Notes: generated by a model from the sequence alone, not told the origin. 64,000 nt of DNA from Vicinamibacterales bacterium (GCA_035606665.1 DATNEY010000026.1:215575-279574); one strand, 5' to 3'; numbered from the stretch's first letter, positions 16,522 to 43,736 are shown. A program made the numbers and translations.

Positions 16522-16567
16522 GCAGGAAGTATCAACGCCGTGGTAGGTGGAGAGTCCATCTTAGTTC

Positions 16568-16595
16568 TTGACAGGGTAAAAGATTACTTTAGAAT
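16568..16595 (+). promoter_or_regulatory. Sigma70-like promoter TTGACA-N16-TAGAAT with a CAGGGTAAA motif abutting the -35
   Basis: Exact hexamers. Near-identical architecture to the promoter at 21034. Confidence 0.55.
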
Positions 16596-16623
16596 GGAGT
16601 CGAGTGCTCCGTTCGTGGTGAAA

Positions 16624-16839
16624 ATGCGAATGACGAAGACACCAACGAATCTCATGACGGTGGAGGAGGCTGCGGCCTACCTCAAAGTCGATCCCAAGAC
16701 GGTCTACCGGTTGATCAACGACAAGGAAATCAAGGCATTCCTCGTGGGGCGGGTGTACCGATTCGAGATGAAGGACATCGAGGACTTCGTCCAGAAATCC
16801 AAACTGAAGGTCCAGCGCGCGGCGAAGCGGAGCTACTGA
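16624..16839 (+). CDS. Excisionase-family helix-turn-helix DNA-binding protein (HTH_17/MerR-like)
   Basis: MTVEEAAAYLKVDPKTVYRLINDKEIKAFLVGRVYRFEMKDIEDFV matches the excisionase-family HTH pattern. The ORF-track start at 16540 overlaps the promoter, so a downstream Met (16624, 16630 or 16654) is the likely start. Confidence 0.6.
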   Translation: MRMTKTPTNLMTVEEAAAYLKVDPKTVYRLINDKEIKAFLVGRVYRFEMKDIEDFVQKSKLKVQRAAKRSY

Positions 16840-16857
16840 GCTTCTGGCAACTGGTCC

Positions 16858-17741: not shown

Positions 17742-19073
17742 TCATTTCACCAGATTCCGCCGCGGCGGAACGGGTTCGGCGATCCTCGGCAACGTGAGGC
17801 CATCAAAGATCAAGTTGTGAAGTGAATAGGATCTTCTTGTGCCCGTCGTGACAACGCCGACCACGAATTCGGCACTGAGTTGAAACGACTTCGGAGCGGC
17901 ACCGGAATTCGTTTCGCTCGCATCCTGAACGAAGCTCATGGTAACTGCAATGTTCTGCCCAGCGGGGATGGGCGTTGTGGACCCGTACACGAACTGGTAG
18001 GGACCGCAAGTCGCGCCTTCCCGGATGTCCGTCGCAGTTTGTGAACCAGTGCCTTCCCACCTTTGAAGAACCAGCACGATCTCGGCAGGATTGTACTCGG
18101 CGCGACCCGGCGCACAGCTGTCCGCACTTCGTCCCACTCCGACAACACTCACGCCAGTAACCGCAGAAGGTGATAGGCGCCAGACCGTGCCTCGCTCGTC
18201 GATGAGGCTGGTCCGCAGGGACGCACCCATCTCCGTACCTTGTCGCTCTGGTGCAGCATCAGCATTCATCGCCACAACCATGGGCCTCTGAAGATCGCGG
18301 TTCAAGAGCTCGATCGAAAGCCTGAACCCGCTTCTGCTTCGACCGTCCTGTCCCTGGAGGCGCATCGGGACGGCCGATTTGAGAACCACACGAAGAGCCC
18401 CGACGTCCTTCGAAGCAATGGCATTGCCTTCGCGATAACTCGGAGTCCCACCGCCACCGCTTGCGGAGTCACCCGCGGGTGCCGTTGCCGTCGTCGAACC
18501 GGCGAACAGCCCTCGATTGAGCAGTTGCTGGATGTCGCTGGTCGTCGGGAAGGTGATCCTGCCGGCGGTGACGATCCGCGATGACTCCGTAGCAATGGCT
18601 TTGACTGTAAGAGTGATCTTCGCATCAAGGGAAGTTACTGTCCCCATCAGGAAGACATCAACCCCCGCGAACTCGCCCAGTTTCTTGGCGTTCGCTGGAT
18701 TGACCAGGCCTTGCACCGTCAGCTTGTTTTCCGCCAGGATGCGATTGGTGTTGGCGCGGTCCAGCATCGAGATGCCGCCGGCGAGCACCATCTCGACGGT
18801 CAGGAGCTCCGACAGGTGGCGCCCCAGTTCGGTCGGCTGTCCCTGGATGTCCGTGAAATCGACCGCGGCTACGTTCTTGATGCCTTGGCTCGCCAGCGCC
18901 TTGCCCAGGTTGGCCGCGAGCGTGGACAGTTCCTTGTCCAGCGATTGTGCCTGTACCTCCGTCGATTGTGCCCGTACCTCCGTGTTGATCGCGAGGCTGA
19001 GCGCAAGGACAACCATCAGTTTCACTGCCGCCAGGATCTTCAAAGTGAACCTCCAACCTGCGCGATGACGCAC
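17742..19073 (-). CDS. Lipoprotein/secreted protein with FlgO/CsgG/LpoB-like domain (paralog)
   Basis: VAAVDFTDIQGQPTELGRHLSELL...DRANTNRILAENKL...GVDVFLMGTVT. GTG start. 21-bp tandem duplication (TEVRAQS x2) in the signal region. Confidence 0.75.
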   Translation of the reverse strand: MRHRAGWRFTLKILAAVKLMVVLALSLAINTEVRAQSTEVQAQSLDKELSTLAANLGKALASQGIKNVAAVDFTDIQGQPTELGRHLSELLTVEMVLAGGISMLDRANTNRILAENKLTVQGLVNPANAKKLGEFAGVDVFLMGTVTSLDAKITLTVKAIATESSRIVTAGRITFPTTSDIQQLLNRGLFAGSTTATAPAGDSASGGGGTPSYREGNAIASKDVGALRVVLKSAVPMRLQGQDGRSRSGFRLSIELLNRDLQRPMVVAMNADAAPERQGTEMGASLRTSLIDERGTVWRLSPSAVTGVSVVGVGRSADSCAPGRAEYNPAEIVLVLQRWEGTGSQTATDIREGATCGPYQFVYGSTTPIPAGQNIAVTMSFVQDASETNSGAAPKSFQLSAEFVVGVVTTGTRRSYSLHNLIFDGLTLPRIAEPVPPRRNLVK

Positions 19074-20909: not shown

Positions 20910-21033
20910 GTGTCGTCAGAGGGCAATAGTGTTCAGGCCTCACGATACCGGCGCGCCAATTGAATCCGCTCCCTCGGACTTGGCCCCGCCCCGGCCGTCG
21001 AACCGTTAGCGAATCGGCTCAGAATGTAAATAC

Positions 21034-21061
21034 TTGACAGGGTAATAGAGTCCAATAGAAT
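21034..21061 (+). promoter_or_regulatory. Sigma70-like promoter TTGACA-N16-TAGAAT with CAGGGTAAT abutting the -35
   Basis: Exact hexamers. Duplicate of the 16568 promoter architecture. Confidence 0.55.
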
Positions 21062-21084: not shown

Positions 21085-22224
21085 GTGCACTTCTTTCTCG
21101 ATCAATACATGCGCAACCGCGACCAGGGCGTTGACTACCTGAAGGTTGGTGACGGCACCCAGGCCCGGTACCACCTCCTCCAAGCGGCCCGATTCCTCCT
21201 CGAATCGGCCAAGCGATCGGAGCCCGCGCTGGCGAGGGTCCGGCGAGATAAGGCCGTTGAACTGCGAGAACTCGCGCTGAGTGTCCCTGAGAAGCCTCAT
21301 ACGCAACCCGCGCCCGTCCGTCAGCCCGGCGCGCTTGCCGACCCGCCGGCCCCTGGGGCCAAAGCCAACGAGGAAGGACTGACCGACGAGGCCAAATGGC
21401 TTCTATCGGAGAAGCCCAATATCCGTTTCTCGCAGATCGCTGGACTCGATGACGTGAAGCAGGCAATCGACCTGCGCCTGGTCTACCCATTCCGCCATCC
21501 GGAAGTCGCCGAGCGTTTCAAGAAGCGGGCGGGCGGCGGGTTGCTCCTGTATGGCCCGCCCGGCACGGGCAAGACAATGATCGGCAAGGCCGTGGCCGCT
21601 GAATTGGACGCGCAGTTCCTGAGCGTGAAGTGCTCGAGCATCATGTCGCAGTGGGTGGGCGTCGCCGAACGCAACATCGCGAAGCTGTTCGACGTCGCCC
21701 GGCGCTACCCCCTGTCAGTCGTGTTCCTCGATGAAACCGAAGCGCTCGTGGGCAAGCGCGGCGGCCATTCGACTGTGATGAACCGCGTCATTCCGGAGTT
21801 TCTTTCCCAGATCGATGGTGTGGATGCGGCGAAGAACGCCATCCTGCTCCTCGGCGCCACGAACCGCCCCTGGGACATGGATGAAGCCGCGTTGCGCACA
21901 GGCCGATTCGGGGAGAAATTCTACGTCGATCTGCCGAACGCTGCGGCGCGCGAGCAGATCCTGCACTTCAATCTCGATGAGATCCCGATGGGCGGTGGCA
22001 TCGATTTCAAAATGCTCGCCGCCGCCACGGACGGCTTCAGCGGTGCGGACATCGTCGGCGTTTGCCGCACGGCGACGGATTATCCCTTCCAGAGGCAGAT
22101 TCGATCCGGTGCCGAAACGGTGCTGCTGCAGGAAGATCTAGACCGCGCACGCAAAGCAACCAAGCCCTCGGTCACACCGGCGATGATTGCCCGATACCGG
22201 CGCTTTGCGGAGACGTCATCGTGA
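21085..22224 (+). CDS. Vps4-like AAA+ ATPase with N-terminal MIT-like domain
   Basis: N-terminal three-helix MIT-like region (GVDYLKVGDGTQARYHLLQAARFLLESAK). Walker A GPPGTGKT, Walker B VVFLDETEAL, meiotic-clade-like AAA. The start may be the ATG at 21109. Confidence 0.85.
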   Translation: MHFFLDQYMRNRDQGVDYLKVGDGTQARYHLLQAARFLLESAKRSEPALARVRRDKAVELRELALSVPEKPHTQPAPVRQPGALADPPAPGAKANEEGLTDEAKWLLSEKPNIRFSQIAGLDDVKQAIDLRLVYPFRHPEVAERFKKRAGGGLLLYGPPGTGKTMIGKAVAAELDAQFLSVKCSSIMSQWVGVAERNIAKLFDVARRYPLSVVFLDETEALVGKRGGHSTVMNRVIPEFLSQIDGVDAAKNAILLLGATNRPWDMDEAALRTGRFGEKFYVDLPNAAAREQILHFNLDEIPMGGGIDFKMLAAATDGFSGADIVGVCRTATDYPFQRQIRSGAETVLLQEDLDRARKATKPSVTPAMIARYRRFAETSS

Positions 22225-22811
22225 CCGCTTTGCGCGATCGACATCTGACCGCCGTGGCGGGCCGCCTCGCACACCTGCTTTGTGGCGCCGATGATCCGGC
22301 CGTGTTCATCGGCGTCCCCGGCGCGCTGGCCGGCGAAATCGGCCGACTGTTCGACCTGCGGCTGTTGCGGCGGGCGGAGGGCGACGGGCCGAAGTTGTCT
22401 TATCGCGATGTGGTGGCGACGTGCGCGATGCCAGCCCGACCTGTTGCGATCGAACGATTGGACGACGCGCCGCTGATCCTCCTTGACGGTTTGAGCGGGC
22501 CAGCGACGCTCGCCACCGCGCCGAGACTCGCTCTGCCGGACACGACGATCACCATCGACGTCGAGGCTCTCCTGCGCCAGCCGGTGCTGCGGTTCTACGT
22601 TCGCACAGACGCGCCGCAGCAGTTCAGCGACGCGATTCGCGCGGAACTGCCGCCGTCTGAGGTCGAGTCGATTCGGCCGATGGCCATCGGCGGAGGTCTG
22701 GCGCTGGTGGCGTCCTTTAACGCCGCCCGCCGGGCCCTGGCGCGGCCGGAAGTTCAGGCGTGGCAGGTGCCGGGCGAGATCGCGCTCAGCACGCCAGCGG
22801 AGTCCCGATGA
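22221..22811 (+). CDS. Hypothetical protein, translationally coupled (GTGA overlap)
   Basis: GTG start overlapping the stop of the Vps4-like gene. High GC3. Confidence 0.55.
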   Translation: MTALRDRHLTAVAGRLAHLLCGADDPAVFIGVPGALAGEIGRLFDLRLLRRAEGDGPKLSYRDVVATCAMPARPVAIERLDDAPLILLDGLSGPATLATAPRLALPDTTITIDVEALLRQPVLRFYVRTDAPQQFSDAIRAELPPSEVESIRPMAIGGGLALVASFNAARRALARPEVQAWQVPGEIALSTPAESR

Positions 22812-25486
22812 AGGCGAGCGCGAAGCTCCATCCGTTTCTCCTGACGTCACTGCCAGAACGCCGAACGGCGCTGCTGCGGCAGTACGCCGAGCGCCTGGTG
22901 ACGTTCGAGTTGACGAACGAACGCGTCGAGGAACACCACTATGACGAGGCGCAGCGGCTCCGGCTGCACCGCGTCATCGAGCGTCAGGTCCAGCGCGGTT
23001 CGCTGCGCGAGAGGTACGCCGCCGTGCTCGGTGCCGTCGCCGATGGCGCCACGGACCGAGCGGCCGCGACGATCCGCCTCAGCCAACTTCTGGACGAGGA
23101 CGCTTCGGGGATCGCCGCGCGAGACACCGTCTCGCTCGATGACCTGGTCCGAGACTACGCCGCGGTTCTTCCTAAGGACAACTGGCCCAATCTCCTCTGC
23201 ATGGCGTCGTCACGCGGCGATATCGAGGTGCTCGAGTCGGAACTGAAGAGCCGTGGGCTCGACGTGCGCCGGTCGCGCTTAACGGGCTTCGGCATTCTGC
23301 ATGTGGCATGTCCGCCCGAAGTCGCGGCGGCCACGCGCATCGCCGAAATGGGCCGGGTCGCCTGCCTGGCGGACGGCGCGTCGCCAGTCCTGTCCCCGGA
23401 ACCGGTGCCGACTGTTTCCGAAATGGTGGAAATGCGCGCCGCAATTGGCCTGACGCGCGAAATGCAGGATGCCGATCAGGGTCTGGCCACCATTGCTGTG
23501 CTCGACACCGGCCTCGACGTCAGCCATCCGGCGTTCGCTCGACTGGCGCGCTCCGACTACCGCAATTTCACCTCGTGGCCCCCGGCCGACGAGGAAGGGC
23601 ACGGTACGCACGTGGCCTCCATCGCCGCTGGCGACGGTGCGTTCGCCGGCCATGAGTACAGCGGCGTCGCGCCGAAGTGCCGGCTCATCGCCGGCAAAGT
23701 CGTGCATGGCCACGGCGTCGGCTCGCTCGAACAGATTCTGGACGGCATGGCGTGGGCCGTGTTCGATGAGCGGGCGGACGTGCTGTCGCTGTCTATCGCC
23801 GAGGAGCGCACTCCTGCCAACGGTCAGTCGATCTGGAGCCGTGCCTGTGACGAAGCGTTTCACCAGGGCACGATCGTGTGCGTGGCGGCGGGCAATCTGC
23901 GGCAGACGCCCGCGTACCCCGGCACTGTGGTGGTGCCGGGCGACGCTGCCACGGCCGTGACGGTCGGTGCCGTTGACAAGGCCGGCCGGCTGGCCCCGTT
24001 CTCGGCGCAGGGAAGCGACGACCCGCACTCGCCTTTGTACCGGCGGCCAACTTGCGTCGCGCCCGGCGTGAACATAACGGCGGCGCGCTCCACGGCGAGC
24101 CAGGAAGGCGCCGGCCTCCTCGTGAGCTACTCGGGCACGAGCATGGCGGCACCGGCCGTTGCAGGTTGTCTCGCTTTGCTCAAGTCGCGCGCGCGATTTC
24201 TTGGCTGGGAGATTCCTCCCGCGGAATTGCTCGACATCTTCTATTCAACGTGCCGGCCGCTCGACTCTGAGAGTGGTGAACCCTACAGCCCCAACTTTGA
24301 GGTTGGACGCGGGCTGGTTGACATGACGCCCGCGATGGAAAAATTGGAGCAGTACGCGGCGGCAGCGGTGGGAATGGGCAGGCCACCCGTGACATCGACC
24401 AGAGACAGAATTGAAATCGAGGGTGGGCAAACGCCGCCGACCGCAGTTCCGACGGCTTCCACGACTGGGCAAGTGGCACCACGCCACCAGGATGTTGTGC
24501 GCGAAGCCTACGCGCAAAACACCTGCTACGCTTGCGGCCGCCGCTACCTGACCGAGGTCGGGACCTTCTCGGAGGCTTGGAAGTGCCGGACGTGCGGGGC
24601 GCCGATCTGCGGCGTGTGTTGGGCGATTGGGCGGCGGGCCTGCGAGCCGCATGAGGCGCCAGGCGTTGCGCCGGGGCCACCGCCGCTGGCGGCGGTTGTC
24701 CCGCCCGGCATCGCCCAGCCGGCGCGAGCGTTATCAGGAGACCGACCGATGTCCAAGGAACTGTCGAATCCATGTGCGATTGCCGACGACGCCGTGATAG
24801 CGGGGCAGCGATTCTTCGATCGCTTTGATCAGCGGGCCGCGCGCGTGGAGGAACTGGTGAATCCAGTGACGGCGAAGGCCGTCCGGAAATCCGATCCTTT
24901 CCATCAGACGCCGCTACGAAAATTCGGGGCTGTTAGCCGCTACAACTTCACTGGAGGCATCAGAGTCTCGCGCCTCGATCTGACGCATTCCAGTCTGTCG
25001 CTGATCGCGGTGCGGGTCGGCGAAGGCGGATTGCAGGCGAAAGACGGTCGGTGCGAGCCGAGCACGGAGTTGCTGCGTAGCTTGCCCCAGGAACTGGACT
25101 TCAAGGATGGCGGCTACTACGTGGTGGGTGTGTTCAGCCCGGTCGGATGGCCAGCGACGTGGACCAATTTCGACCACGTCAGCGCGAACTTCGAGGTGCA
25201 CCTGGTTGAATGCCGCGACGGACGGTGGCAGGTGCATGGATCGGACACGGAGTTTCGCACCCTGTTTGATCCGCGGTCTGACAAGGAACTTCTGGCCGGG
25301 TTGATGTCGGCGCTGCAGGGCGAGGCGCGTCTCGTGATCCCCGGCGATCAGGTGAGCCTGGACGAGTTCTCTGCGGCGCACGGGATCGCGCCCGAGTTGG
25401 TCTCGAAGACACTGGCGGTCCAGGATCTCGGCTACCAGGTAATTTCACAAAAGGGGCGCTCGGTGATCCAGCGCCGCCATCGCTGA
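22808..25486 (+). CDS. Cytoplasmic subtilisin-like serine peptidase (S8) with N-terminal helical domain, internal zinc ribbon and C-terminal unknown domain
   Basis: Catalytic triad contexts IAVLDTGLD (Asp), HGTHVASIAAG (His), GTSMAAPAVAG (Ser). No signal peptide. CYACG...CRTCG. ATGA overlap with the upstream gene. Confidence 0.85.
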   Translation: MKASAKLHPFLLTSLPERRTALLRQYAERLVTFELTNERVEEHHYDEAQRLRLHRVIERQVQRGSLRERYAAVLGAVADGATDRAAATIRLSQLLDEDASGIAARDTVSLDDLVRDYAAVLPKDNWPNLLCMASSRGDIEVLESELKSRGLDVRRSRLTGFGILHVACPPEVAAATRIAEMGRVACLADGASPVLSPEPVPTVSEMVEMRAAIGLTREMQDADQGLATIAVLDTGLDVSHPAFARLARSDYRNFTSWPPADEEGHGTHVASIAAGDGAFAGHEYSGVAPKCRLIAGKVVHGHGVGSLEQILDGMAWAVFDERADVLSLSIAEERTPANGQSIWSRACDEAFHQGTIVCVAAGNLRQTPAYPGTVVVPGDAATAVTVGAVDKAGRLAPFSAQGSDDPHSPLYRRPTCVAPGVNITAARSTASQEGAGLLVSYSGTSMAAPAVAGCLALLKSRARFLGWEIPPAELLDIFYSTCRPLDSESGEPYSPNFEVGRGLVDMTPAMEKLEQYAAAAVGMGRPPVTSTRDRIEIEGGQTPPTAVPTASTTGQVAPRHQDVVREAYAQNTCYACGRRYLTEVGTFSEAWKCRTCGAPICGVCWAIGRRACEPHEAPGVAPGPPPLAAVVPPGIAQPARALSGDRPMSKELSNPCAIADDAVIAGQRFFDRFDQRAARVEELVNPVTAKAVRKSDPFHQTPLRKFGAVSRYNFTGGIRVSRLDLTHSSLSLIAVRVGEGGLQAKDGRCEPSTELLRSLPQELDFKDGGYYVVGVFSPVGWPATWTNFDHVSANFEVHLVECRDGRWQVHGSDTEFRTLFDPRSDKELLAGLMSALQGEARLVIPGDQVSLDEFSAAHGIAPELVSKTLAVQDLGYQVISQKGRSVIQRRHR

Positions 25487-25495
25487 GGGGATGCC

Positions 25496-26116
25496 ATGAA
25501 GCTGCTCGATCGGCTCAAAAAGATCTTTCAGCGCGCGTCGGTTCCCGAGGACGCGCGGCGCGTCTACGCCGAGTCTCGGTCAACGGAGGAGCTGGTCGCC
25601 GGGCTCGAGCGCCTATTCGGCACCAACCGCATGGAATACGACCGGCTGTATACCGAATTGGCCGCCGTGTCGAAGGCCATCGCCGCGCAGAAGGACAAAG
25701 TCAGGTCGGGCGGCTTGAGCGCGATCGAGGAAGACGTGACTCTGGATGACATTGAGATTCGACAGGAACACCAGGCAAGGCTGAGAGGCCGCTTGTCCGT
25801 GCTGAAGGGCAACCTGCTCCTGCACCAGCGCCTGATCGGCACCGTCCAGGACGCCCAGGTCCGTGAAATGCGCGGCATCAGCGAGGAAGACGTTGATGCC
25901 ATTGTCGAAGCCGCGCAGGATGCAGTTGCGTCATACGAGCGCGACATGAAAGCGGGCGAGGCGGCCGAGGCGTCGCCGGTCGAGGATGAGGCAGCCGAAG
26001 CGGCGCGGCGCGTCGAACGACGCCGGAAGCTCCTCGGCGAGGATCCCGTTGCCGCCGCGGAGCCTGCCGCTGTGCCGCGGCAGACGAAGGCTGACCGATC
26101 TCAGGAACCCGAATAG
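25496..26116 (+). CDS. Coiled-coil protein, possibly a divergent ESCRT-III-like subunit
   Basis: Helical, charged, ~200 aa, acidic C-terminal half. Sits between the subtilase and a Snf7-like gene. Assignment tentative. Confidence 0.45.
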   Translation: MKLLDRLKKIFQRASVPEDARRVYAESRSTEELVAGLERLFGTNRMEYDRLYTELAAVSKAIAAQKDKVRSGGLSAIEEDVTLDDIEIRQEHQARLRGRLSVLKGNLLLHQRLIGTVQDAQVREMRGISEEDVDAIVEAAQDAVASYERDMKAGEAAEASPVEDEAAEAARRVERRRKLLGEDPVAAAEPAAVPRQTKADRSQEPE

Positions 26117-26149
26117 ATCTCATTGATGAGGGAGATGACGCTGATGGTC

Positions 26150-26770
26150 ATGGACATCTGGAACAAGCTGTTTAAGAAGACGCCGAACGTGTCGGACTTG
26201 CGCGTGCAGTTCAAGGAAATCGAGCGCGAGCAGAAGAAGAAGCGCCGCGATCTAGAAATGGCTGAGGTGGCCAAGACTGCGAAACTCCGCGAGGCCGTGA
26301 AAGCCAAGAAGGACGGCAAGAGCGAGCTGCAGCGCGATATCTTCCGCGAATTGCGGCAGATGGAAATCAACCGCGGCCACATGGACACCGAATTGCGCCA
26401 ATTGTCGCTGTCGAAGACGGCGCTGACGCGGTTCATACGCCAGATCGAACGGCTCGAGAAGCGCAAGGATCGAAAGAGCCTGCAGAGCATCATCCTCCGA
26501 TTCAAGGAGAGCGACCTGCAAGCCATCATCAGCAAGGCTGAAGTGGACGACGACACGTTCAACGACGTGCTCGAAGAGATCCTCGGCGACGAAGAACTCG
26601 AGGTGACGGGCGGCAAGCTGAAGGAGGACTCGGGGTTCGCTGAGTTCGATCGCGCGCTCGAGCAGATGGTGAGGGCCGAGGAGTCGGGGTCCGAGGATGA
26701 CGTAGCCAAGATCCAGGCCGAGATCGACCGCGCGGTTCGCGCCGACCGCGACACGGACTCCGAGCGGTGA
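26150..26770 (+). CDS. Snf7/ESCRT-III-like coiled-coil protein
   Basis: MDIWNKLFKK N-terminus, basic helical hairpin (KEIEREQKKKRRDLEMAEVAKTAKLREAVKAKKDGK...), acidic C-terminal half (DDDTFNDVLEEILGDEELE). Pattern as in Snf7/CHMP4. Confidence 0.6.
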   Translation: MDIWNKLFKKTPNVSDLRVQFKEIEREQKKKRRDLEMAEVAKTAKLREAVKAKKDGKSELQRDIFRELRQMEINRGHMDTELRQLSLSKTALTRFIRQIERLEKRKDRKSLQSIILRFKESDLQAIISKAEVDDDTFNDVLEEILGDEELEVTGGKLKEDSGFAEFDRALEQMVRAEESGSEDDVAKIQAEIDRAVRADRDTDSER

Positions 26771-28002
26771 AGATCGATCTCAGCGGACCCATCAAGGCGA
26801 GCCTGGACAAGGCTGTCGCGGAGGCGCGCGCGCACCAGCAGGCGGGCCGGCTCAACGAAGCCGCGGCCGCGTTCATCAAGGCGGCGGGATTGATGAACAG
26901 CTACGGTGAATACGCGCTCACCCGGAGCGACGAAGTACGGCGCCGCCTCAAGGCCCGCACGTATTTGCAGGTCGCCGAACAGTTGCGTGCGGGAGGGGGC
27001 GGCACAAAGCCGCGGCGGCCCGCGCCGGCTCCGTCCGGACCAACTGGCTCCAGCGGGGCAGGTCAGCACGAGAGCCAGCCCGACGCCGAGCAGGAGGAGC
27101 AGACATCGGCCATCGAAGCCCTGATCTACCGCAGCCCGGCAACCTGGGATCAGATCGGCGGCCTGGACGAGACGAAGCGCGAAATCAAGTTCGCTTATGG
27201 CCTCGCGCTGGCCGCCAAGCCGGAGGGCGTGGCTTTGCCAGGGTGGCGCCGCATCTTGTTCTATGGCCCGCCGGGCACGGGCAAGACGCTCCTGGCCGCG
27301 GCCACGAGCAACGGCCTAAGCGCCACCTTCTTCAACGTGAAGGTGGGGAGCCTGTTGTCCAAGTACTTCGGGGAGTCGTCTCGACTGATCTCGACTCTCT
27401 TTGACGTGGCGCGGGATCGTGCTGACGAGGGGTTTTCAGTCGTGTTCGTCGACGAGATCGAATCGTTGTGCCTGCCGCGCGGCGAAGGTTCCGAAAGCGG
27501 CGCAGAGCGGCGCGTGCTGTCCACACTGCTGTCCGAACTGGACGGCCTGGCCGACAAAGGCGAGGATCGGTCCGTGCTGACCATCGCGGCGACGAACGCG
27601 CCCTGGGACCTCGACGACGCGATTCTGAGCCGGTTTCAGAAGCGCGTGTTCATCCCGCTTCCCGACGCTGCCGCGAGAAAGCAGATCCTCGGGATCCTGC
27701 TAGAGAAGGCCGGTCATCAGCTTGACGTGCCCGTGGACGATTTGGTTGCGCGGACCGAGTGGTTCAGCGGGCGCGATCTCGAACGGCTCGCGCATCAGGC
27801 GATCAATGTCATGGTGGCCGACTTGAACGGATCCGTTCCGGATCTGGTCGATCGCGGCCGAGCGCAGATCGAGGGGTACGAAATCAAGGTCCGGCCGCTC
27901 GGCCGGCCGGACTTCGATCGCGCCTTCGACCGTATCCGGGTGGACGTCGTCCGGCAGAAAGAGCAGGGCCAGCGGTATCGGGAGTTCGAGGCAGCGAACT
28001 GA
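26767..28002 (+). CDS. Vps4-like AAA+ ATPase with N-terminal MIT-like domain (second copy)
   Basis: GTG start overlapping the upstream stop. MIT-like helices (AEARAHQQAGRLNEAAAAFIKAAGLM). GPPGTGKT, VVFVDEIESL. Confidence 0.85.
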   Translation: MKIDLSGPIKASLDKAVAEARAHQQAGRLNEAAAAFIKAAGLMNSYGEYALTRSDEVRRRLKARTYLQVAEQLRAGGGGTKPRRPAPAPSGPTGSSGAGQHESQPDAEQEEQTSAIEALIYRSPATWDQIGGLDETKREIKFAYGLALAAKPEGVALPGWRRILFYGPPGTGKTLLAAATSNGLSATFFNVKVGSLLSKYFGESSRLISTLFDVARDRADEGFSVVFVDEIESLCLPRGEGSESGAERRVLSTLLSELDGLADKGEDRSVLTIAATNAPWDLDDAILSRFQKRVFIPLPDAAARKQILGILLEKAGHQLDVPVDDLVARTEWFSGRDLERLAHQAINVMVADLNGSVPDLVDRGRAQIEGYEIKVRPLGRPDFDRAFDRIRVDVVRQKEQGQRYREFEAAN

Positions 28003-28020
28003 TCGCGAGGGAATCGTCGA

Positions 28021-29061
28021 ATGTTGGAATGCGCCAGGTGCGGGCGGAGTGAGCCTTCTGATTCGGTGCGAGTCTGCCCCGGGTGTGGCGGCGCACTGAG
28101 GGCCGCCCCGCTACCGGGGCCGATTTCAATTTCGCGCGGTGACACGGGTCTCGACAAGAGCGTGACCAGTATCCACAGTTCCGCGCAGACCAGCTCGACC
28201 CGCGACGACCATTCCATTCGAGACGACCATTCGGTTCGAGATAGTCGCTCGGTCAGGAACGTCACGAAAGACGATCACTCGTCGAGGGCGACGACGATCA
28301 GGACGAATATCGACAACCGCGTCAAGCATTCGCGCGTGAATATCGGCGGTGGCGTCCTCGTCTTCTTCGCGATGATCGCTGCCTTGGGATTCGCCATGTG
28401 GGTCATCAATCGGCAGGCTCAGCCGTCGGCAATCACGCTTTCGCCCTCGCCGAACCAGCTCGTGGCTACGCCGGTGGTTTCGACGCCAGTTTCGAGCCCC
28501 ACTGGGGTCCCGCCAACGCCCATCGTGCAGCAGGCTCCAGCCCCGCAGCCTCCGGTCGCCGGAGCGGCTCCGCCGCCTGTGGCCACGCCGCCCAAGCTGG
28601 ATCGCACGAAGTATCTGAACATCGGGTCGATTCGCCCCGGCCTCGTCGCCGTTCTGATGGTCGATGAGCGCCGCGGCGCCGACGCCCTGCTTACCCAGCA
28701 GATGGCGGCAGCGCTTGGGGGGAACGACGATCTCTTCAAACCGGCGTTCGTCGGCGATGGCCTGTTCTCGCGCGTTCATCGCGGCGACATCGATCTGCTC
28801 AGGGAGCTTGGCATCGGTACAGACGTCGCGGAGATTGCACTCGGCACGCGGGCGGCGACGTTTTCGGGGATCGATGTGTCTGGGACGCCGATGACGCGCG
28901 CGAGCGTCACGTTGAGTGTGCGCATCACGCGGCCGTCGGCGGGCTTCGTGTCGAATATGCAAGCCGCCCCGGGGGTCGGTGCCGGATTCGATGAGGCATC
29001 AGCATTGGCGCTTGCCACTGAGAATGCCCTCAAGGTCTTGTTGAAGCAGATGGGAAGGTGA
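28021..29061 (+). CDS. Membrane-anchored protein: N-terminal zinc ribbon, STRDDHS-repeat linker, TM, Pro-rich spacer, C-terminal FlgO/LpoB-like domain
   Basis: CARCG...CPGCG. Linker and TM near-identical to the 14549..15433 protein. C-terminal block LVAVLMVDE...VAEIALGT...ASVTLSVRIT. Confidence 0.75.
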   Translation: MLECARCGRSEPSDSVRVCPGCGGALRAAPLPGPISISRGDTGLDKSVTSIHSSAQTSSTRDDHSIRDDHSVRDSRSVRNVTKDDHSSRATTIRTNIDNRVKHSRVNIGGGVLVFFAMIAALGFAMWVINRQAQPSAITLSPSPNQLVATPVVSTPVSSPTGVPPTPIVQQAPAPQPPVAGAAPPPVATPPKLDRTKYLNIGSIRPGLVAVLMVDERRGADALLTQQMAAALGGNDDLFKPAFVGDGLFSRVHRGDIDLLRELGIGTDVAEIALGTRAATFSGIDVSGTPMTRASVTLSVRITRPSAGFVSNMQAAPGVGAGFDEASALALATENALKVLLKQMGR

Positions 29062-30104
29062 GAGAGATGATGACGAGGTCGGCAAGATTCCGAACCGCAA
29101 CCTTCAGTGCCGTACTCCTCGTGGCGGCCATCCTTCCGACAGGGGTCAGCGGACAGCAGAAGCTGTCCGGCGAGGGTCTTCAGGATCTCGCGAATCAGAT
29201 CACCGCCGGGGTTACCAAAGAACGCAAGCAGAAGATCGGCGTGCTTCCGTTCGTCGAATTGGATGGGCGTCCGACGATGCTGGGCGCATTCCTTTCCGAG
29301 GAATTGACGACGAAATTGTTCACTGCCGGAGGTTTTGAGATCGTCGAGCGGACTCTGTTGGGCAAGGTCATGGCTCAACTGAAATTGAATGCATCCGGCG
29401 CCATCGATGCCGATCAGGCCAAGCAGATCGGGAAGCTGGCCGGCGTTGACGCGATTGTGACGGGCACGATCACGGATCTTCAATCGTCGATCGCGCTGAA
29501 CTGCCGGCTGATCGATGTTCTGACTGGCCGGGTCTTCGGTGCCGCGCAGACGAGAATCGTGAAAGACGATGACATCAAAGCTGTGATGAATCGGTCGCAG
29601 GGTCCGGCCGGCGGCGAGGAAAATGCTGGTGCGACCGGCACCGGCTTGCCAAACGCAACGCCGCGCGGGCCATCGGTGAGTGCAGCTGGGCTCCAGTTCA
29701 CAATGGTCGGTTGCACACGATCGGCCAATTCGATCGAGTGCCTGATCACTGTGGTGACGAGACAGGACCAGGAGGTCCGTGTTGGATGCGACAACTCCAC
29801 TGGAACGAAAGCCTTCGACACCAAGGGACAACCCCTGCGCTGCGGTCGCGTGACGCTCGTTGGCCAGCGGACCGGTTCGGCGTGGGGAAATGAAGTCACC
29901 CTTGTTTCGAATGTCGGCGCGCCCCTGGTCCTGGTGTTTGAGGGCGCGACACAGGATTCACGAACGCTATCTCGCCTGGACATTGCCTTTGCGTTCGGGA
30001 GGTCCGCTCTTGGTGGCGTTGGTGCTGGTGCCGCTGGGGCAGGAGGTGGCAGGGTTGGTTGGAGCGCCGTCCAATTCCGCAACGTGCCGGTGCAGGAGCG
30101 GTAG
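29058..30104 (+). CDS. Lipoprotein with FlgO/CsgG/LpoB-like domain (paralog)
   Basis: ATGA overlap start. Signal peptide. KIGVLPFVELDGRPTMLGAFLSEELTTKL...GVDAIVTGTITDL...LNCRLIDVLTGRV. Confidence 0.7.
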   Translation: MREMMTRSARFRTATFSAVLLVAAILPTGVSGQQKLSGEGLQDLANQITAGVTKERKQKIGVLPFVELDGRPTMLGAFLSEELTTKLFTAGGFEIVERTLLGKVMAQLKLNASGAIDADQAKQIGKLAGVDAIVTGTITDLQSSIALNCRLIDVLTGRVFGAAQTRIVKDDDIKAVMNRSQGPAGGEENAGATGTGLPNATPRGPSVSAAGLQFTMVGCTRSANSIECLITVVTRQDQEVRVGCDNSTGTKAFDTKGQPLRCGRVTLVGQRTGSAWGNEVTLVSNVGAPLVLVFEGATQDSRTLSRLDIAFAFGRSALGGVGAGAAGAGGGRVGWSAVQFRNVPVQER

Positions 30105-30109
30105 CTCGC

Positions 30110-30871
30110 ATGGATGGGCTGAAACACGCGTGGGACGCGGCCACCCAGGACCTGGCCGTTTGGTTGATCCGGGCGCTGATCACGACGCTCGTCGTGACGC
30201 TCATGTGGTGGTTCTGGGAACGAATTCGCCGGGCGATTCTGCGCCTGCTGGGACGCACGCCGGCTCCGCCAACGCAGGCGCAACAGCCGGATTGGCAGGA
30301 AGGTTACGCGGTGCGCCTGTGGCCGCTCGACCGGCTCCGTCAGGGCGTCGTCATTGCGCCGCGCACTCGTCTCCTCGTCATTGACCGGGACGTTGTCCAG
30401 TTCGAACTGGAGCCGGGGAAGTACGCCGGCAGCGATCTCGGACGCCGACTGGCCCGTCATGCGGTGGGGGCTGGCGCGATGGCGGTCCAGGTGCCGGATG
30501 GAGGTATTCAGTTTGAACGGACACTTGGCGCCGAGCTGGAGGGCAGGGCTGACGCGATGGCTGGGGGCGTGAGGTTAGGGCTGAACGTCGATCCGCACGG
30601 TTTCGGGAAGCTGGCGAGGTCGTCGCGCCTGCGCAATGGGGTGCTGACCAAGGATGATGTGTTTGCGTTCGTGGAGGAGGTCGTGCAGCCCCGACTGGCC
30701 CAGATAGCGGAACACCCGGCTATGCCTGGCGTCGGCTCGGAAACGGTCATGCAGCAGATCGCCGACCACCTCCACCAGGAATTGGGCTTGGTGGGGTCCG
30801 TTGATTCCACAGTCCCCGCGGTGCCGGCTGCGGCGCATCTGAACGTGCCCGCTCATGGGCCGACCAGCTAG
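30110..30871 (+). CDS. Membrane protein with one TM, possible SPFH-like fold
   Basis: ATG 6 nt after the upstream stop. TM LAVWLIRALITTLVVTLMWWFW. Weak similarity to the SPFH region of the 31017 protein. Confidence 0.55.
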   Translation: MDGLKHAWDAATQDLAVWLIRALITTLVVTLMWWFWERIRRAILRLLGRTPAPPTQAQQPDWQEGYAVRLWPLDRLRQGVVIAPRTRLLVIDRDVVQFELEPGKYAGSDLGRRLARHAVGAGAMAVQVPDGGIQFERTLGAELEGRADAMAGGVRLGLNVDPHGFGKLARSSRLRNGVLTKDDVFAFVEEVVQPRLAQIAEHPAMPGVGSETVMQQIADHLHQELGLVGSVDSTVPAVPAAAHLNVPAHGPTS

Positions 30872-31016: not shown

Positions 31017-32984
31017 ATGAGCGCGTGGTTCGATGGCCAGGTTGAGTGTCCGTCCTGTCATAAGGGGACGCGTCCGGGCAAGTTCTGCGGCGAGTGCGGC
31101 AAGCCGATGCCCGGCAGCGAAGTGCGCTGCGGCCGCTGCAACGCGGCGGTGTCTGCTACCGCGACGTTCTGCGGCCAGTGCGGGGCTTCGCTTGCAGAGA
31201 GTACAGCGCCCGCGGTAGTGGGAAATCGTTGGGCCAGACGCGCGGATGACTTCGCCACGCGGGTTGACGTGAACGACGTCGAAGGCTTCTTCACGAAAGG
31301 ACTCGTCGTCGAGGAAGGCACGAAGGCCCTCTTCATTACGAATGGCGCATTCTCCGGTATCGTTGACGCTGGCCGCCACGATCTGGGCGGGCTCAAGCGC
31401 GCGATCCTGAACGTCTTCAGCTCGAAGAAAACGACAGCCGTACTGATTGATGCAGGCGATGTCGAGGTCTCCTTCTCGTTGGATGGCCTGCGAACGGCGG
31501 ACCCGCTGCATCTCTCGGCGGATTGCCGCGTGGTACTGCGACTCGATAACCCGGTCCCGTTTTTCGAAAATCTCCTGAAAGGACAACAGAGCTATTCGCT
31601 AACGGCGATGCGTGCCTTCATCGCCGATGAGTTACGCAATGCCGGACAGGAGTTCCTATCGGGTAGGACAGTGGCCGACCTCTCTGGCAATCTCGCGGTG
31701 AAACAGGCGCTTGAGCAGGGTATTGCCGCCCACTTGGCCCGTACGCTCGAGCGCAAAGGCCTGACGCTGGTCCAGGTGCGCGTGTTCGATTTCCGCCACG
31801 CGAAACTCAACGCGCTGACCGGCAAGCTTGAGGAGTACTGGCTGAACGCCGAAGAACTCCGAACGCGGCTCAAGGGCGGCGACATGCTCGCCGGCGTCGA
31901 GCGCAAGGTGCTCGATCAGGAGACGCAACGCGCGCTCATGCAGGTCGAAGTCTACGAAGATCGGGCGCGCGTCTATCAGCGTATGCGTGCCGCCGCCAAT
32001 TCGGAGGAATTCAACAAGATCAGCAGCGCCGACGATCTCGAGCGATTCGTGCATGGCATCGACAAAGGCGGGCTGATTCGTGCGAAGGAAATGGAGGAAC
32101 TGAAGGCGGACTTCGCCGACCGCACTGTGGATCGGGAAGTGGCGCGCAAACACCTGCTCGCGACACTTGGGGTGAACCATGCCGCTGAATTGCAGCGCCT
32201 GGAGCTCATCAGCAAGTTGTCGCTGCAGACGACACTCGCCGAGGCGATGCGGGGGGAGGAACTGAAGAATTTCGAGCTTCAGCAAGAGAAGGAACGGCGA
32301 GATGCCGCCCGGAAGCGCGAGGCGCGCATGGCTGAGCACGACCAAGACATTAAGAAGGCAAAAGACGGCCTCGAACTGCTGGCAGTGATGCGAAAACAGA
32401 AAGCCGAAGAGGCCGATCGCGATCAGGAGCGCGAATTGCGCGCCGAGAGAGACCGTCATGCTCGGGACCTCGAACGGTACCAGAAGCTCGCCGAACTGGG
32501 TCCGGACGCTCTCATCAGCTTCGCCCCCGCCGACCGGGCTCCCATCCTTGCCGAACTGCGTAAGACCGAAATGCTGAAGGGCATGACGGATAGCCAGATC
32601 CTGGCGATGGCCGCAGAGAAGAGCGGCGCCGTCGCTGACGCCCTGAAGGAGAAGTTCAAGGGCGAGGCAGGGCGCGAAGTTATGGAACGGCTGATTCTCG
32701 AGAAGGATCGGCACGCGGGGCAGAGCCACGAAGTGATGCGCGCCAATGCCGAGCAACTCGAACGTCTGGCAACGCGGGCCATGGACACGATGCGCGACAC
32801 GGCAACCGCCGCGACACGCGCCGGTCAGCCGGGCATGACAGTCATCACGCCTGGCATGAGTTCGGGCGTCGTTCAGACGGGCGCAGGCGGTGGGGTGGGC
32901 GCGATGAAGTGTCCGAAATGCCACCACGACGTGCCGCCGTCGCAGAACTTCTGCCAGAACTGCGGCCATAAGTTCCTGCCATAG
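31017..32984 (+). CDS. SPFH/band-7 (flotillin-like) protein with N-terminal double zinc ribbon, long EA/KR-rich coiled coil and C-terminal zinc ribbon
   Basis: CPSCH...CGECG...CGRCN...CGQCG. SPFH-like core (VLIDAGDVEVSF...CRVVLRLDNP...RTVADLSGN...LTLVQVRVFDF). C-terminal CPKCH...CQNCG. Confidence 0.7.
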   Translation: MSAWFDGQVECPSCHKGTRPGKFCGECGKPMPGSEVRCGRCNAAVSATATFCGQCGASLAESTAPAVVGNRWARRADDFATRVDVNDVEGFFTKGLVVEEGTKALFITNGAFSGIVDAGRHDLGGLKRAILNVFSSKKTTAVLIDAGDVEVSFSLDGLRTADPLHLSADCRVVLRLDNPVPFFENLLKGQQSYSLTAMRAFIADELRNAGQEFLSGRTVADLSGNLAVKQALEQGIAAHLARTLERKGLTLVQVRVFDFRHAKLNALTGKLEEYWLNAEELRTRLKGGDMLAGVERKVLDQETQRALMQVEVYEDRARVYQRMRAAANSEEFNKISSADDLERFVHGIDKGGLIRAKEMEELKADFADRTVDREVARKHLLATLGVNHAAELQRLELISKLSLQTTLAEAMRGEELKNFELQQEKERRDAARKREARMAEHDQDIKKAKDGLELLAVMRKQKAEEADRDQERELRAERDRHARDLERYQKLAELGPDALISFAPADRAPILAELRKTEMLKGMTDSQILAMAAEKSGAVADALKEKFKGEAGREVMERLILEKDRHAGQSHEVMRANAEQLERLATRAMDTMRDTATAATRAGQPGMTVITPGMSSGVVQTGAGGGVGAMKCPKCHHDVPPSQNFCQNCGHKFLP

Positions 32985-33007: not shown

Positions 33008-34420
33008 ATGCCTGCGTGGGAATGTCCGAATTGCGGGGTCGCGAACCTACCGAATGACGGTGAGTGTCGGGCGTGCAGGACGCCGCGCCCGTCCGGGTGG
33101 ATCGACGGCAGCTGGGAGTGTCCGAGGTGCGGCAACGAGAACTCGAACAGCGACGAGCACTGCCAGCAGTGTGGCTATCTGCCCGGGGCTGATTCGATCT
33201 CCCGTGTGGCGAGTTCATCGAGCGAGCAGGCCGTCGGCAAGGACATCATGTCCAACCTCCGCAAGATGAATGAGGATCTGCTCGGGGACATTCGGAGCCA
33301 GGTTGCCGGCCTGATAGGGGCTCCCCCTGCGCGAACCGCCGCAAGTCTTCCCCTGTCGACGCCCAGCCGGCGACGGCCCATCGAGCGCGCCACGACACGG
33401 ACACTTGCAGTGCGAGTGCGTGCGCTCCCGAAGCTCAACTACGCTCTGCTACACGCAGGGTTGCCGCTGATCAGCGCGATCGAGCTTTCGAATGCAGACA
33501 CACAGTCAGCCGAGGATCTCCTCCTTAGGGCATGGGTTGCGCCCGACTACGGGGAGGCTTGGCAGACGAGCATATCGAGCATTCCCGGCCGGTCGAGCCT
33601 TGAAGTGAAAGACGTCGAAGTGCCGCTGCGGAAGGCGCGCCTGCAAGAGGTTCGTGAAGCCGAGCGGGCAAGCCTCAGGGTCGATGTCTTCAGCGAAGGA
33701 AAGATCGTGCAGTCGGTCACACAACCCCTGCAGGTGCTGGCCTACAACGAGTGGTATTTCCACCCCGCCATTCCGCATACGGCCGCATGCTTCGTGCAGC
33801 CGAATTCGTCTGCAGTGGAGACGATAACTTCGCTCGTGAGGGATCGGCTGCGTCGCGTGGGAGCCGACCCGTCCATGTCCGGTTACCAGGAGGGCGGAGC
33901 AGGCCGAGTGATGGCATTGGCAAAGGCCTTGTACGAGACGCTGCAGCAGGACCTGAAATTGTCGTACATCAACCCCCCGCCGAGCTTTGAGCATCCTGAG
34001 CTTCTCGATGATGGCGACATGACGATTTCGCAGAAGGTGTTCCTTCCGGAGCAGATTCTCAAAGAACAGCGCGGGACCTGCCTCGATCTGGCATTCCTCG
34101 GGGCGTCGTGCCTTGAGCGCATGGGCCTGAATCCGATCTTCTTTCTGGTTCCAGGCCACGCCTTCTTCGGCGTGTGGCTCGAACCATCGTATTTGCGCGA
34201 GCCTTGGACGCGTGATGGCGCGGCGGTTCGAGCTCTGGTGAACGATCGACGGTGGTTGCCGCTCAACTCCACGACATTCACGGCTAACCCCATGCGCCCG
34301 ATGGAACAGTGCCGCAATGAAGCGGTGAGTTTTCTCTCTGGCGACGTTCGACTCGAAGCCGCCGTCGACATTACAGCCGCGCGCCAGGCAGGCATCAAGC
34401 CGGTTCCGCCGCTCCTGTGA
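33008..34420 (+). CDS. Transglutaminase-like cysteine peptidase domain protein with N-terminal double zinc ribbon
   Basis: CPNCG...CRACR...CPRCG...CQQCG. Transglutaminase-core-like GTCLDLAFLGASCLERMGLNPIFFLVPGHAFFGVWLE (Cys ... His). Confidence 0.7.
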   Translation: MPAWECPNCGVANLPNDGECRACRTPRPSGWIDGSWECPRCGNENSNSDEHCQQCGYLPGADSISRVASSSSEQAVGKDIMSNLRKMNEDLLGDIRSQVAGLIGAPPARTAASLPLSTPSRRRPIERATTRTLAVRVRALPKLNYALLHAGLPLISAIELSNADTQSAEDLLLRAWVAPDYGEAWQTSISSIPGRSSLEVKDVEVPLRKARLQEVREAERASLRVDVFSEGKIVQSVTQPLQVLAYNEWYFHPAIPHTAACFVQPNSSAVETITSLVRDRLRRVGADPSMSGYQEGGAGRVMALAKALYETLQQDLKLSYINPPPSFEHPELLDDGDMTISQKVFLPEQILKEQRGTCLDLAFLGASCLERMGLNPIFFLVPGHAFFGVWLEPSYLREPWTRDGAAVRALVNDRRWLPLNSTTFTANPMRPMEQCRNEAVSFLSGDVRLEAAVDITAARQAGIKPVPPLL

Positions 34421-43562: not shown

Positions 43563-43736
43563 ATGTCACTCCCCGCGGGCACCAAACTCGGCACGTACGA
43601 AATTATTTCTCCTCTCGGCGCAGGCGGCATGAGCGCCTGCGGCCGGGCGAGCGCGCGAAGCGCGTCGAGCCCTCCAGGCGTGGGGGTGGGGCCCCACGCA
43701 ACTTCTAGAAGAGGACGGCCGAGCCCATGCCGCTAG
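43563..43736 (+). pseudogene. Remnant of a Ser/Thr kinase 5' end (MSLPAGTKLGTYEIISPLGAGGMS...) immediately upstream of the intact kinase
   Basis: ~75% identity in the first 25 codons to the N-terminus of the 43727 kinase (MPLAAGTRLGSFEIISALGAGGMG), then the similarity decays into a GC-rich out-of-context tail. Confidence 0.55.

Follow-up and report, generated by a model that had tools for sequence, protein, structure and literature searches.

A conserved, rare bacterial ESCRT-III/Vps4-like gene cluster in a Vicinamibacterales genome

Described ESCRT-type systems and the new cluster

[quoted passage not shown] Vps4-like ATPases for PspA systems 'appear absent in bacteria' according to a 2025 review, and the disassembly of bacterial ESCRT-III polymers is listed as an open question. 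Here, we describe a gene cluster on a 64,000-nucleotide (nt) stretch of DNA, the window, from an uncultured soil bacterium of the Vicinamibacterales (phylum Acidobacteriota; GCA_035606665.1 DATNEY010000026.1:215575-279574). All coordinates are window positions. An earlier note, made from the sequence alone, had proposed a nine-gene operon (G1 to G9) at positions 21085-30871. The cluster encodes two ATPases of Vps4-like architecture, three families of helical proteins with weak but specific similarity to ESCRT-III (S200, G4, G5), and envelope proteins (Table 1). It is a real, conserved and rare bacterial cluster of the ESCRT-III/Vps4 kind, and it is of high interest because it bears directly on the open question of bacterial ESCRT-III.

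The closest known systems are the euryarchaeal ESCRT loci, described as 'Main', 'Halo_FHA' and 'Meth_adaptin' (Makarova et al., 2024; PMC11188069). Accessory genes of these loci code for a winged-helix partner, a Ser/Thr kinase (STK), an FHA protein and a coiled-coil, zinc-ribbon SPFH protein (PMC11188069). The window cluster resembles archaeal ESCRT/Cdv in the arrangement of a single-cassette MIT-AAA ATPase beside several Snf7-type subunits of ~200 amino acids (aa). Further common features are a partner with a possibly winged-helix-like end, membrane Ser/Thr kinases, an FHA protein and an SPFH/coiled-coil/zinc-ribbon protein. It differs in the bacterial host and in two distinct ATPases, each with its own putative subunit family. 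Additional parts are an S8 peptidase and its companion protein (G2), a FlgO-like domain on a membrane protein, and a protein resembling transglutaminases, and the scores lie far under the CdvC and Snf7 cut-offs. No homologue of CdvA or of ESCRT-I/II was detected.

Among PspA/Vipp1 systems, the ydjFGHI-type operon of Bacillus subtilis likewise combines an ESCRT-III-superfamily protein with a zinc-ribbon Band 7/SPFH protein (PMC11237479). It also encodes a zinc-ribbon protein with a transmembrane (TM) segment, and a membrane-proximal action is common to both (PMC11237479). In contrast to PspA systems, the subunits of the window match Snf7 and not PspA_IM30 and are coupled to MIT-AAA ATPases, and the cluster is devoid of PspF, PspB/C and LiaI-type partners. 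According to Ravi and co-workers (2024; PMC11237479), bacteria have acquired Vps4-like AAA ATPases by transfer, and Snf7/PspA+AAA neighbourhoods occur occasionally. In these transfers, a gene for a protein with TPR and six TM segments takes the place of snf7 (PMC11237479). The reported Snf7/PspA+AAA operons contain ABC transporter and OmpA/PBPB genes, some with a two-cassette ATPase (PMC11237479). None of them combines dual MIT-AAA ATPases, three helical families, the adaptor domain G3C, the membrane protein X280 and an S8 peptidase. No description of this cluster was found in the literature searched; papers outside that set may exist.

The IetAS/IteAS defence pairs also place a classical-clade AAA ATPase beside a large leaderless S8 peptidase. 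Here, G2 is located between the two, the peptidase is joined to G3C and dispensable in relatives, and the matches are domain-level scores only. An identification of G1 and G3 as an IetAS pair was rejected because the scores are far under the cut-offs and S8 is dispensable. IetAS is not known to have ESCRT-III-like partners.

Gene order and conservation

Twenty distinct related loci were obtained from genomes, metagenomes and contig look-ups, and all window proteins were mapped onto them. The constant set comprises the three ~200-aa helical families and two distinct single-cassette AAA ATPases, AAA1 and AAA2. In Acidobacteriota loci (Vicinamibacterales, Terriglobia and unclassified metagenome-assembled genomes, MAGs), the order is X280, S200, AAA1, an optional G2-S8 pair, G3C, G4, G5 and AAA2. 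It continues with a G9-like/u471-like fusion, an SPFH protein, a zinc-ribbon/transglutaminase-like protein and a kinase; these last three usually follow the core. G3C-G4-G5-AAA2 is contiguous in all contigs long enough to show it, and AAA2 stands directly after G5 in 17 distinct loci. S200 and AAA1 are neighbours in the loci of Acidobacteriota and in two remote ones, L029 and L030. At protein identities of 25-68%, the core order persists under three or more phylum labels.

The window, L002, L007, L009, L011 and L015 carry the S8 domain and G2. Both are missing in L005, L010, L014 and L019, in which a free-standing 240-aa G3C directly follows AAA1. Altogether, S8 is missing in about one third of the informative loci. 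A kinase is fused to G3C instead of S8 in L003 (Bryobacterales), and G4-G5-AAA2 is followed there by DUF4384 and caspase genes.

Remote loci retain parts of this order. L029 has G3C-like, G4-like and G5-like genes, a 211-aa gene, and S200-like and AAA1-like genes, followed by a 619-aa gene, an X280-like gene and a kinase. L030, a MAG labelled Pseudomonadota, has caspases and then G5-like, AAA2-like, S200-like and AAA1-like genes. In L033, a Planctomycetota MAG, G4-like and G5-like genes precede a gene start overlapping by 4 nt and matching the MIT-like N-terminus of AAA2. The pairings of S200 with AAA1 and of (G4 and) G5 with AAA2 therefore persist. In four further remote relatives of G5, no ATPase gene is located close by.

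G5 homologues numbered 113 in a word-indexed collection. A full scan with the hidden Markov model (HMM) of the G5 family yielded only 67 clusters in 1.84 billion representatives, which marks the family as rare. Searches of the word index with G4 and with G3C returned the query only; orthologues of both were taken from neighbouring genes in the recovered loci. Long-form G5 paralogs (290-690 aa) that have a coiled-coil or Cys-rich extension at the C-terminus occur in L012, P0089-P0112, L022, L024 and L026, none with an adjacent AAA ATPase. Three of them are located within ~5 kb in L012:5748-10792, broken up by a kinase gene on the other strand. P0168 (L034:1-11057), a remote G5-like gene, belongs to a series of small co-directional genes that overlap, and ThiF, NUDIX and VWA genes are among its neighbours; these surroundings look like a phage or another mobile element. 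A G5 profile scan of a viral contig collection found no relative.

The nine co-directional + strand open reading frames (ORFs) at 21085-30871 are present as claimed in the earlier note, with a high GC content at third codon positions (0.68-0.86). The tight junctions proposed there were recovered. Overlaps of 4 nt occur at G1/G2 (GTGA), G2/G3 (ATGA) and G5/G6 (GTGA). The distances are +9 nt from G3 to G4, +6 to +27 from G4 to G5 by start choice, +18 from G6 to G7 and +5 from G8 to G9, while G7 and G8 overlap or are separated by +5, depending on the start. The domain calls were also correct, i.e. two AAA ATPases, a leaderless S8 subtilase, zinc ribbon and TM segment in G7, and CsgG/FlgO in G8. 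Within the block, no internal promoter-like site was found, and the only + strand terminator-like signal, at 29267, is weak and within the range of chance. Terminator-like signals amounted to 7 versus 10.1 +/- 3.0 expected by chance.

A promoter-like TTGACA-16-TAGAAT site is present at 21034-21061 (11/12 consensus positions), where a single strong promoter had been postulated. The site is confirmed, but it is not single: a near-identical element precedes the separated Snf7-like gene (16568). Matches of at least 11/12 positions in the 64 kb numbered two versus 0.05 expected. A 38-nt element is common to both copies, with CTTGACAGGGTAAWAGA exact at 16567 and 21033 (0.07 expected). This element was not found in the related loci. 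In this genome, insertions have split the ancestral cluster, and both halves carry the same 38-nt element. The HTH_17 ORF probably starts near 16626 because of the promoter-like element at 16568. The ORF is absent between X280 and S200 in relatives, and its product could act as a local regulator.

The boundaries 21085-30871 were not upheld, as the conserved unit reaches upstream to 15679-17460 and downstream to ~37068. A second tight block begins 145 nt 3' of G9 and encodes B7, a protein with zinc ribbon, one with FHA domain and one of 471 aa (u471). The interpretation in the earlier note is partly supported: gene order upholds and reinforces its central idea that the Vps4-like ATPases act in a single functional system with ESCRT-III-like and envelope proteins; its limits and gene content need correction in detail. 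The gene-neighbourhood check that had been suggested gave a positive result for G3C-G4-G5-AAA2 and S200-AAA1 but a negative one for G7 and G8, neither of which has a counterpart here in any of the relatives examined; G9, G2 and S8 are intermediate. With G7 and G8 lacking counterparts and S8 and G2 facultative, the nine genes are therefore only partly a conserved unit. Scans of the window for Rfam families and tRNA genes gave no match, and neither an integrase nor a tRNA gene nor any other mark of an island was seen. Genes for peptidoglycan enzymes (M23 peptidase and YkuD) near the cluster are consistent with a bacterial host.

Table 1. Coordinates of the cluster genes, neighbouring genes and promoter-like elements in the window
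Feature	Position	Strand	Basis and remarks
X280, membrane protein with FlgO/CsgG-like domain	15679..16521	+	Hydropathy, BLASTP; conserved first cluster gene
Small HTH_17 (excisionase/MerR-like) ORF	16540..16839	+	Pfam; between X280 and S200
Promoter-like element, copy 1 (TTGACA-16-TAGAAT)	16558..16595	+	Upstream of the HTH_17-S200 pair; site at 16568
S200, Snf7-type ESCRT-III-like protein, 200 aa	16858..17460	+	Pfam Snf7, hhalign; adjoins AAA1 in relatives
CsgG/FlgO-like secreted protein or lipoprotein	17742..19073	-	Pfam; between S200 and G1, this genome only
Zinc-ribbon Ser/Thr kinase with C-terminal TM helix	19425..20909	+	Pfam Pkinase E 6.7e-51, Zn_Ribbon_1
Promoter-like element, copy 2	21024..21061	+	24 nt 5' of the G1 start
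G1, AAA1	21085..22224	+	MIT-like three-helix N-terminus and one classical AAA cassette; Pfam AAA E 4.4e-36
G2, 196 aa, no recognisable domain	22221..22811	+	Occurs only beside S8
G3, N-terminal part	22808..24724	+	215-aa N-terminal region, S8 subtilase domain, zinc module; facultative
G3C, ~250-aa adaptor domain	24725..25486	+	C-terminal part of G3; always directly upstream of G4
G4, 206-aa helical protein	25496..26116	+	Weakly supported ESCRT-III-like subunit; always upstream of G5
G5, ESCRT-III-like subunit	26126..26770	+	Likely start 26144, giving 208 aa
G6, AAA2	26767..28002	+	MIT-like N-terminus and Vps4/katanin-type AAA cassette; Pfam AAA E 3.7e-34
G7, zinc ribbon, low-complexity linker, TM, periplasmic domain	28021..29061	+	Lineage-specific insert
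G8, secreted CsgG/FlgO-like protein	29058..30104	+	Likely start 29067; CsgG E 3.2e-13, FlgO E 1.6e-11; lineage-specific insert
G9, single-pass membrane protein	30110..30871	+	Hydropathy, tblastn
B7, double zinc ribbon, SPFH/Band 7, long coiled coil, C-terminal zinc ribbon	31017..32984	+	
Zinc-ribbon protein with transglutaminase-like Cys..His core	33008..34420	+	Conserved partner (L002, L005, L010, L014)
FHA-domain protein	34417..35643	+	Pfam FHA E 3.2e-7; 4-nt overlap with the preceding gene
u471	35653..37068	+	C-terminal part of the same 515-536-aa gene as G9 (faint Band_7 in the L002 gene)

The two AAA ATPases

Both ATPases appear to have the architecture of Vps4, an MIT domain and one AAA cassette, and G6 in addition a signature of the Vps4 clade. 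As in Vps4/CdvC, a single classical AAA cassette is present in each. The start of G1 is the GTG at 21085, in agreement with the conserved N-terminus of the orthologues. Its motifs are Walker A (GPPGTGKT, aa 157), the pore loop (SQWVG, aa 188), Walker B (FLDETE, aa 214) and the second region of homology (SRH; LRTGRF, aa 270). G6 carries GPPGTGKT as in G1, the pore loop SKYFGES at aa 198 and, at aa 274, an SRH of the Vps4/katanin/spastin pattern. Walker A, a DE-containing Walker B and the aromatic pore loop 1 are kept in the orthologues of both proteins. The SRH and C-terminal traits of the meiotic clade are found in G6 only, the SRH of G1 being of the CDC48 type. The lid of G6 contains an insert of ~17 aa relative to G1. 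The C-terminal half of G6 yielded katanin MEI-1 (77 bits), katanin-like 1, Sulfolobus Vps4 (63 bits) and spastin (59 bits) as best single-domain PDB matches. In its SRH and lid, G6 is nearest to katanin, Vps4 and spastin.

A profile of the N-terminal 110 residues of G1 and G6 orthologues was searched against the PDB. All 11 matches were MIT domains, ten of them from VPS4A/B (best E 2.9e-4). When the N-termini were aligned separately with the VPS4B MIT domain, E-values of 0.001 (G1) and 2.3e-4 (G6) were obtained. Pfam MIT matched three of 15 N-terminal fragments (best E 0.0079). An N-terminal MIT-like domain is thus predicted for G1 and G6 with moderate significance. The top NCBIfam model was CdvC for both: G1 scored 202 bits, level with CDC48, and G6 170 bits, ahead of PAN (151) and CDC48 (146). 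As judged by these scores, neither ATPase ranks as a curated Vps4/CdvC family member. The genes of both are coupled to those of ESCRT-III-like proteins.

The helical ESCRT-III-like proteins

S200, the strongest candidate of the three, matched Pfam Snf7 (PF03357) with an E-value of 1.5e-4 over profile positions 4-136 of 171. Four of five S200 orthologues matched Snf7, as did the S200-like protein of L029 (E 0.0045), each time below the gathering threshold. In the G4 family, two of eight orthologues matched Snf7 (best E 0.0077). The query proteins G2, G4 and G5 gave no Pfam, NCBIfam or PADLOC match. Neither the single sequences of S200, G4 and G5 nor their profiles had a meaningful match among PDB sequences.

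An ESCRT-III reference profile was built from seven eukaryotic sequences, a small and uncurated set. Against it, hhalign yielded E-values of 2.5e-5 for the G5 family over 60 columns (N-terminus and helix 1), 5.4e-5 for S200 over 119 co-linear columns and 0.018 for G4 over 97 co-linear columns. These scores exceed all 60 column shuffles and the reversed controls. An AlphaFold2 (AF2) model of G5 from a 32-sequence alignment reached a predicted local distance difference test (pLDDT) value of 77. It consists of helix 0 (aa 2-15), a hairpin (22-62/66-113), short helices and an acidic tail. In a Foldseek search with this model, the ESCRT-III superfamily accounted for 18 of the top 50 PDB matches, none of them individually significant. 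G4 and G5 had been called ESCRT-III-like; the designation lacks Pfam support at gathering level but is backed by the weaker evidence from profiles, topology and context.

PspA_IM30 (PF04012) is not among the families listed for S200, G4 and G5 at E <= 1, and a membership of the PspA type was rejected because of this missing match. The three families showed no similarity to each other in hhalign, on which basis they cannot be called paralogs.

The N-termini read MxLFKSKEERR in S200, MSVMxKLKxLFQR in G4 and MNLLxKLFSK in G5; they resemble the MxLFGK starts of CHMP proteins. Behind an acidic stretch, the tails of S200 and G5 have D-[LIV]-[SA]-x-[IFV]-x-x-E-[IL]-[DE]-[KR] in common. The orthologues of G4 end in a proline-rich tail, EEP-L-P-x-KK-x-LE. 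These tails are candidate MIT-interacting motifs (MIMs), with a possible resemblance to the MIM1 and MIM2 consensus sequences.

The subtilase, its companion and the adaptor domain

G3 comprises 892 aa in total. Its Peptidase_S8 match (PF00082) has an E-value of 1.6e-43 and 149.5 bits versus a gathering score of 21.8, and the catalytic set D230, H265, N363 and S445 is intact, as in members of the subtilases. The motifs AVLDTG (230), HGTHVA (265), AAGN (360) and GTSMAAP (443) are kept in four orthologues. According to the hydropathy profile, G3 has no hydrophobic segment or leader and is therefore predicted to be cytoplasmic. An eight-ligand Cys/His module, CxxC...CxxCx4CxxCx6CxxH, is located between S8 and G3C (aa 573-616; 24524-24655). 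It is kept in all four full-length orthologues and presumably forms a two-zinc finger. The G2 HMM matched only S8-bearing loci (L002, L007, L011).

The G3C domain aligns at 26-35% identity among relatives and has no database match. An HMM search placed it upstream of G4 in all informative loci, L029 among them. In the window the domain is joined to S8, in some relatives it forms a separate protein, and in Bryobacterales a kinase is attached to it. A single-sequence AF2 model had a pLDDT of 45.7, with only a C-terminal H-H-H-hairpin at 60-82. The last ~45 aa may be winged-helix-like, which is proposed with modest confidence. The earlier note regarded the system as possibly proteolytically regulated. 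Proteolysis can at most be an optional layer, with S8 and G2 missing in L005, L010, L014 and L019 and replaced by a kinase in L003; the constant part is G3C, not the subtilase.

Proposed mechanism and alternatives

We give a slight preference, at a probability of about 0.55, to the reading that the cluster works like an ESCRT-III/Vps4 machine, i.e. in ATP-driven membrane remodelling under the control of envelope proteins and phospho-signalling. Co-occurrence, domain architecture and weak but specific homology were observed, while polymerisation, tail recognition, the substrates of the protease and the cellular role are inferred. The helical subunits would bind the cytoplasmic face of the inner membrane via their N-terminal Mx(L/F)Fx(K) segments and then polymerise. 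The MIT domains would recognise tails, which are conserved and acidic/amphipathic in S200 and G5 and proline-rich in G4. S200 is the putative partner of AAA1 and G5 that of AAA2. By drawing subunits through their pore loops with ATP, the ATPases may remodel or dismantle the polymer. G3C would dock an enzyme head at the polymer, namely S8 and its companion G2 here, a kinase in Bryobacterales and none elsewhere. X280, the extra FlgO-like proteins, SPFH and the STK/FHA phospho-signalling could set the place and time of assembly. The purpose could be envelope or membrane repair, vesicle formation, or a defence of the abortive-infection type.

A farther-reaching proposal falls a little short of even odds. 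The genes would encode a complete bacterial ESCRT-like machinery with a dedicated MIT-AAA ATPase for the disassembly of each Snf7-type filament subunit, a winged-helix adaptor for nucleation or targeting and a connection to the envelope. It would stem from an ancient bacterial lineage or an old archaeal transfer. In the case of a transfer, the archaeal system would have gained bacterial envelope parts and the optional protease or kinase head.

The homology to ESCRT-III and MIT is probably real, albeit weak (profile E 1e-3 to 2.5e-5, under curated cut-offs), and several results speak against an ESCRT-III/Vps4 machine. The Snf7 score of S200 is 21.9 bits, under the gathering score of 27.3, and members of the G5 family matched Pfam Snf7 in none of 32 cases and in one of 30 (E 0.02). 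The CdvC equivalog cut-off is 650 bits; G1 (202) and G6 (170) are both far under it. Pfam searches at E <= 0.01 gave no Vps4_C match in G1 or G6. The homology statistics remain under curated thresholds throughout, which tempers the finding. Together with the non-specific fold searches, this evidence leaves room for an ATP-dependent proteolysis or quality control of envelope proteins, in which AAA1 unfolds substrates for S8 and the helical proteins are plain coiled-coil adaptors. Such a function would suit the translational coupling of AAA1, G2 and S8 by 4-nt overlaps and the intact, leaderless S8. It is nevertheless quite improbable, given that L005, L010, L014, L019, L003, L029 and L030 manage without S8 whereas helical proteins and ATPases are constant. 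The profile similarity to ESCRT-III is co-linear and above shuffled and reversed controls, and the MIT-like domains point to a recognition of ESCRT-III-type tails. That unrelated short operons came to lie side by side by chance, the genome being gene-dense, is the least probable explanation by far and already contradicted for the core. In its favour, G7 and G8, like the kinases and the FlgO-like gene (17742), belong to multi-copy families scattered in the window and are not positionally conserved. The explanation fails for a core order kept over the identities and phylum labels given above, for 4-nt overlaps at three junctions and for two promoter-like copies versus 0.05-0.07 expected.

A conflict or anti-phage system acting by abortive infection is unlikely, yet less so than the two preceding explanations. 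The AAA ATPases and proteases (S8, caspase, transglutaminase-like) would sense or execute, in the manner of IetAS and of systems based on caspases, and the helical proteins would be membrane-damaging effectors or scaffolds and not a housekeeping machine for remodelling. It differs from the ESCRT-III/Vps4 machine in role; the molecular mechanism could be ESCRT-like all the same. PADLOC/NCBIfam models gave domain-level matches to IetA/IteA (E 1.9e-33 and 9e-33) and IetS/IteS (E 1.6e-10 and 7e-7). The downstream gene 33008-34420 matches with aa 144-467 positions 1-313 of 1903 of the 'anti-phage protein ProA' (NCBIfam NF058533, E 2e-72), i.e. its N-terminus. Literature searches on 'ProA' as an anti-phage protein yielded nothing relevant. 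The window, L003 and L030 have caspase and DUF4384 genes beside the module, and the rarity of the G5 family, its patchy distribution, the variable accessories and the paralog expansions (L012) would also fit defence. The scores are, however, far under the cut-offs (IteA 113.9 and 105.3 vs 510, IteS 27.8 vs 900, ProA 244 vs 1500). No PADLOC match was obtained for X280, B7, FHA, the helical proteins or the transglutaminase-like protein. The absence of S8 from about a third of the informative loci, of relatives from viral contigs and of island marks counts against defence as well.

Under the ESCRT-III/Vps4 reading, bacterial Snf7-like subunits with MIT-AAA ATPases would make the disassembly question testable with few soluble proteins. 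The cluster would provide one more piece of evidence on whether Vps4 originated by vertical inheritance or transfer. It would demonstrate that ESCRT-like machinery can be coupled to envelope proteins of Gram-negative cells, to SPFH scaffolds and kinases, and to a protease or kinase head that can be exchanged. A role in defence would imply a new effector logic, and one in repair or vesiculation a new envelope-homeostasis pathway in the Acidobacteriota, a dominant and poorly studied soil phylum.

Envelope, accessory and flanking genes

In X280 (280 aa), one N-terminal TM segment precedes a FlgO/CsgG-like domain (aa ~60-170), after which three TM helices follow at the C-terminus. The protein is similar to the FlgO-like domain of G8 (BLASTP E 6e-7). 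Orthologues are located directly upstream of S200 in L002, L007, L010 and L014, and homologues also occur in L003 and L029. The link to the envelope by FlgO-like proteins, previously ascribed to G8, is real but runs via the conserved upstream X280. The FlgO/CsgG-like family has four copies in the window (386-784, 17742-19073 on the - strand, 29067-30104 and 37196-38344). Zinc-ribbon Ser/Thr kinases are present three times (3124-4035 on the - strand, 19425-20909 and 43727-44575), and kinases of the 19425-20909 family flank the cluster in most relatives. A zinc-ribbon paralog of G7 at 14936-15433 (- strand) has 53% identity over 174 aa.

G9 (aa 1-126) corresponds to the N-terminus of a 515-536-aa gene located after AAA2, with 30-33% identity in L002, L010, L014, L015 and L017. 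In tblastn, u471 showed 27-31% identity in L002, L005, L006, L010, L014 and L019. The similarities suggest that G9 and u471 are split or rearranged halves of that gene. B7 has Pfam matches to Band_7 (E 4.9e-13), DZR and Zn_Ribbon_1, and its orthologues (45-49% identity) are found downstream of AAA2 in L002, L005, L010, L014 and L019. The Cys..His core of the transglutaminase-like protein, GTCLDLAF...PGHAFFGVW, was read by eye. Weaker FHA homologues are located near the cluster in L010 and L014.

Upstream, a caspase gene (Peptidase_C14, 11896-13191, - strand) overlaps by 4 nt the gene of a 535-aa single-pass membrane protein (13188-14795, - strand). Genes for caspases and DUF4384 also occur next to the ESCRT-like modules of L003 (Bryobacterales) and L030.

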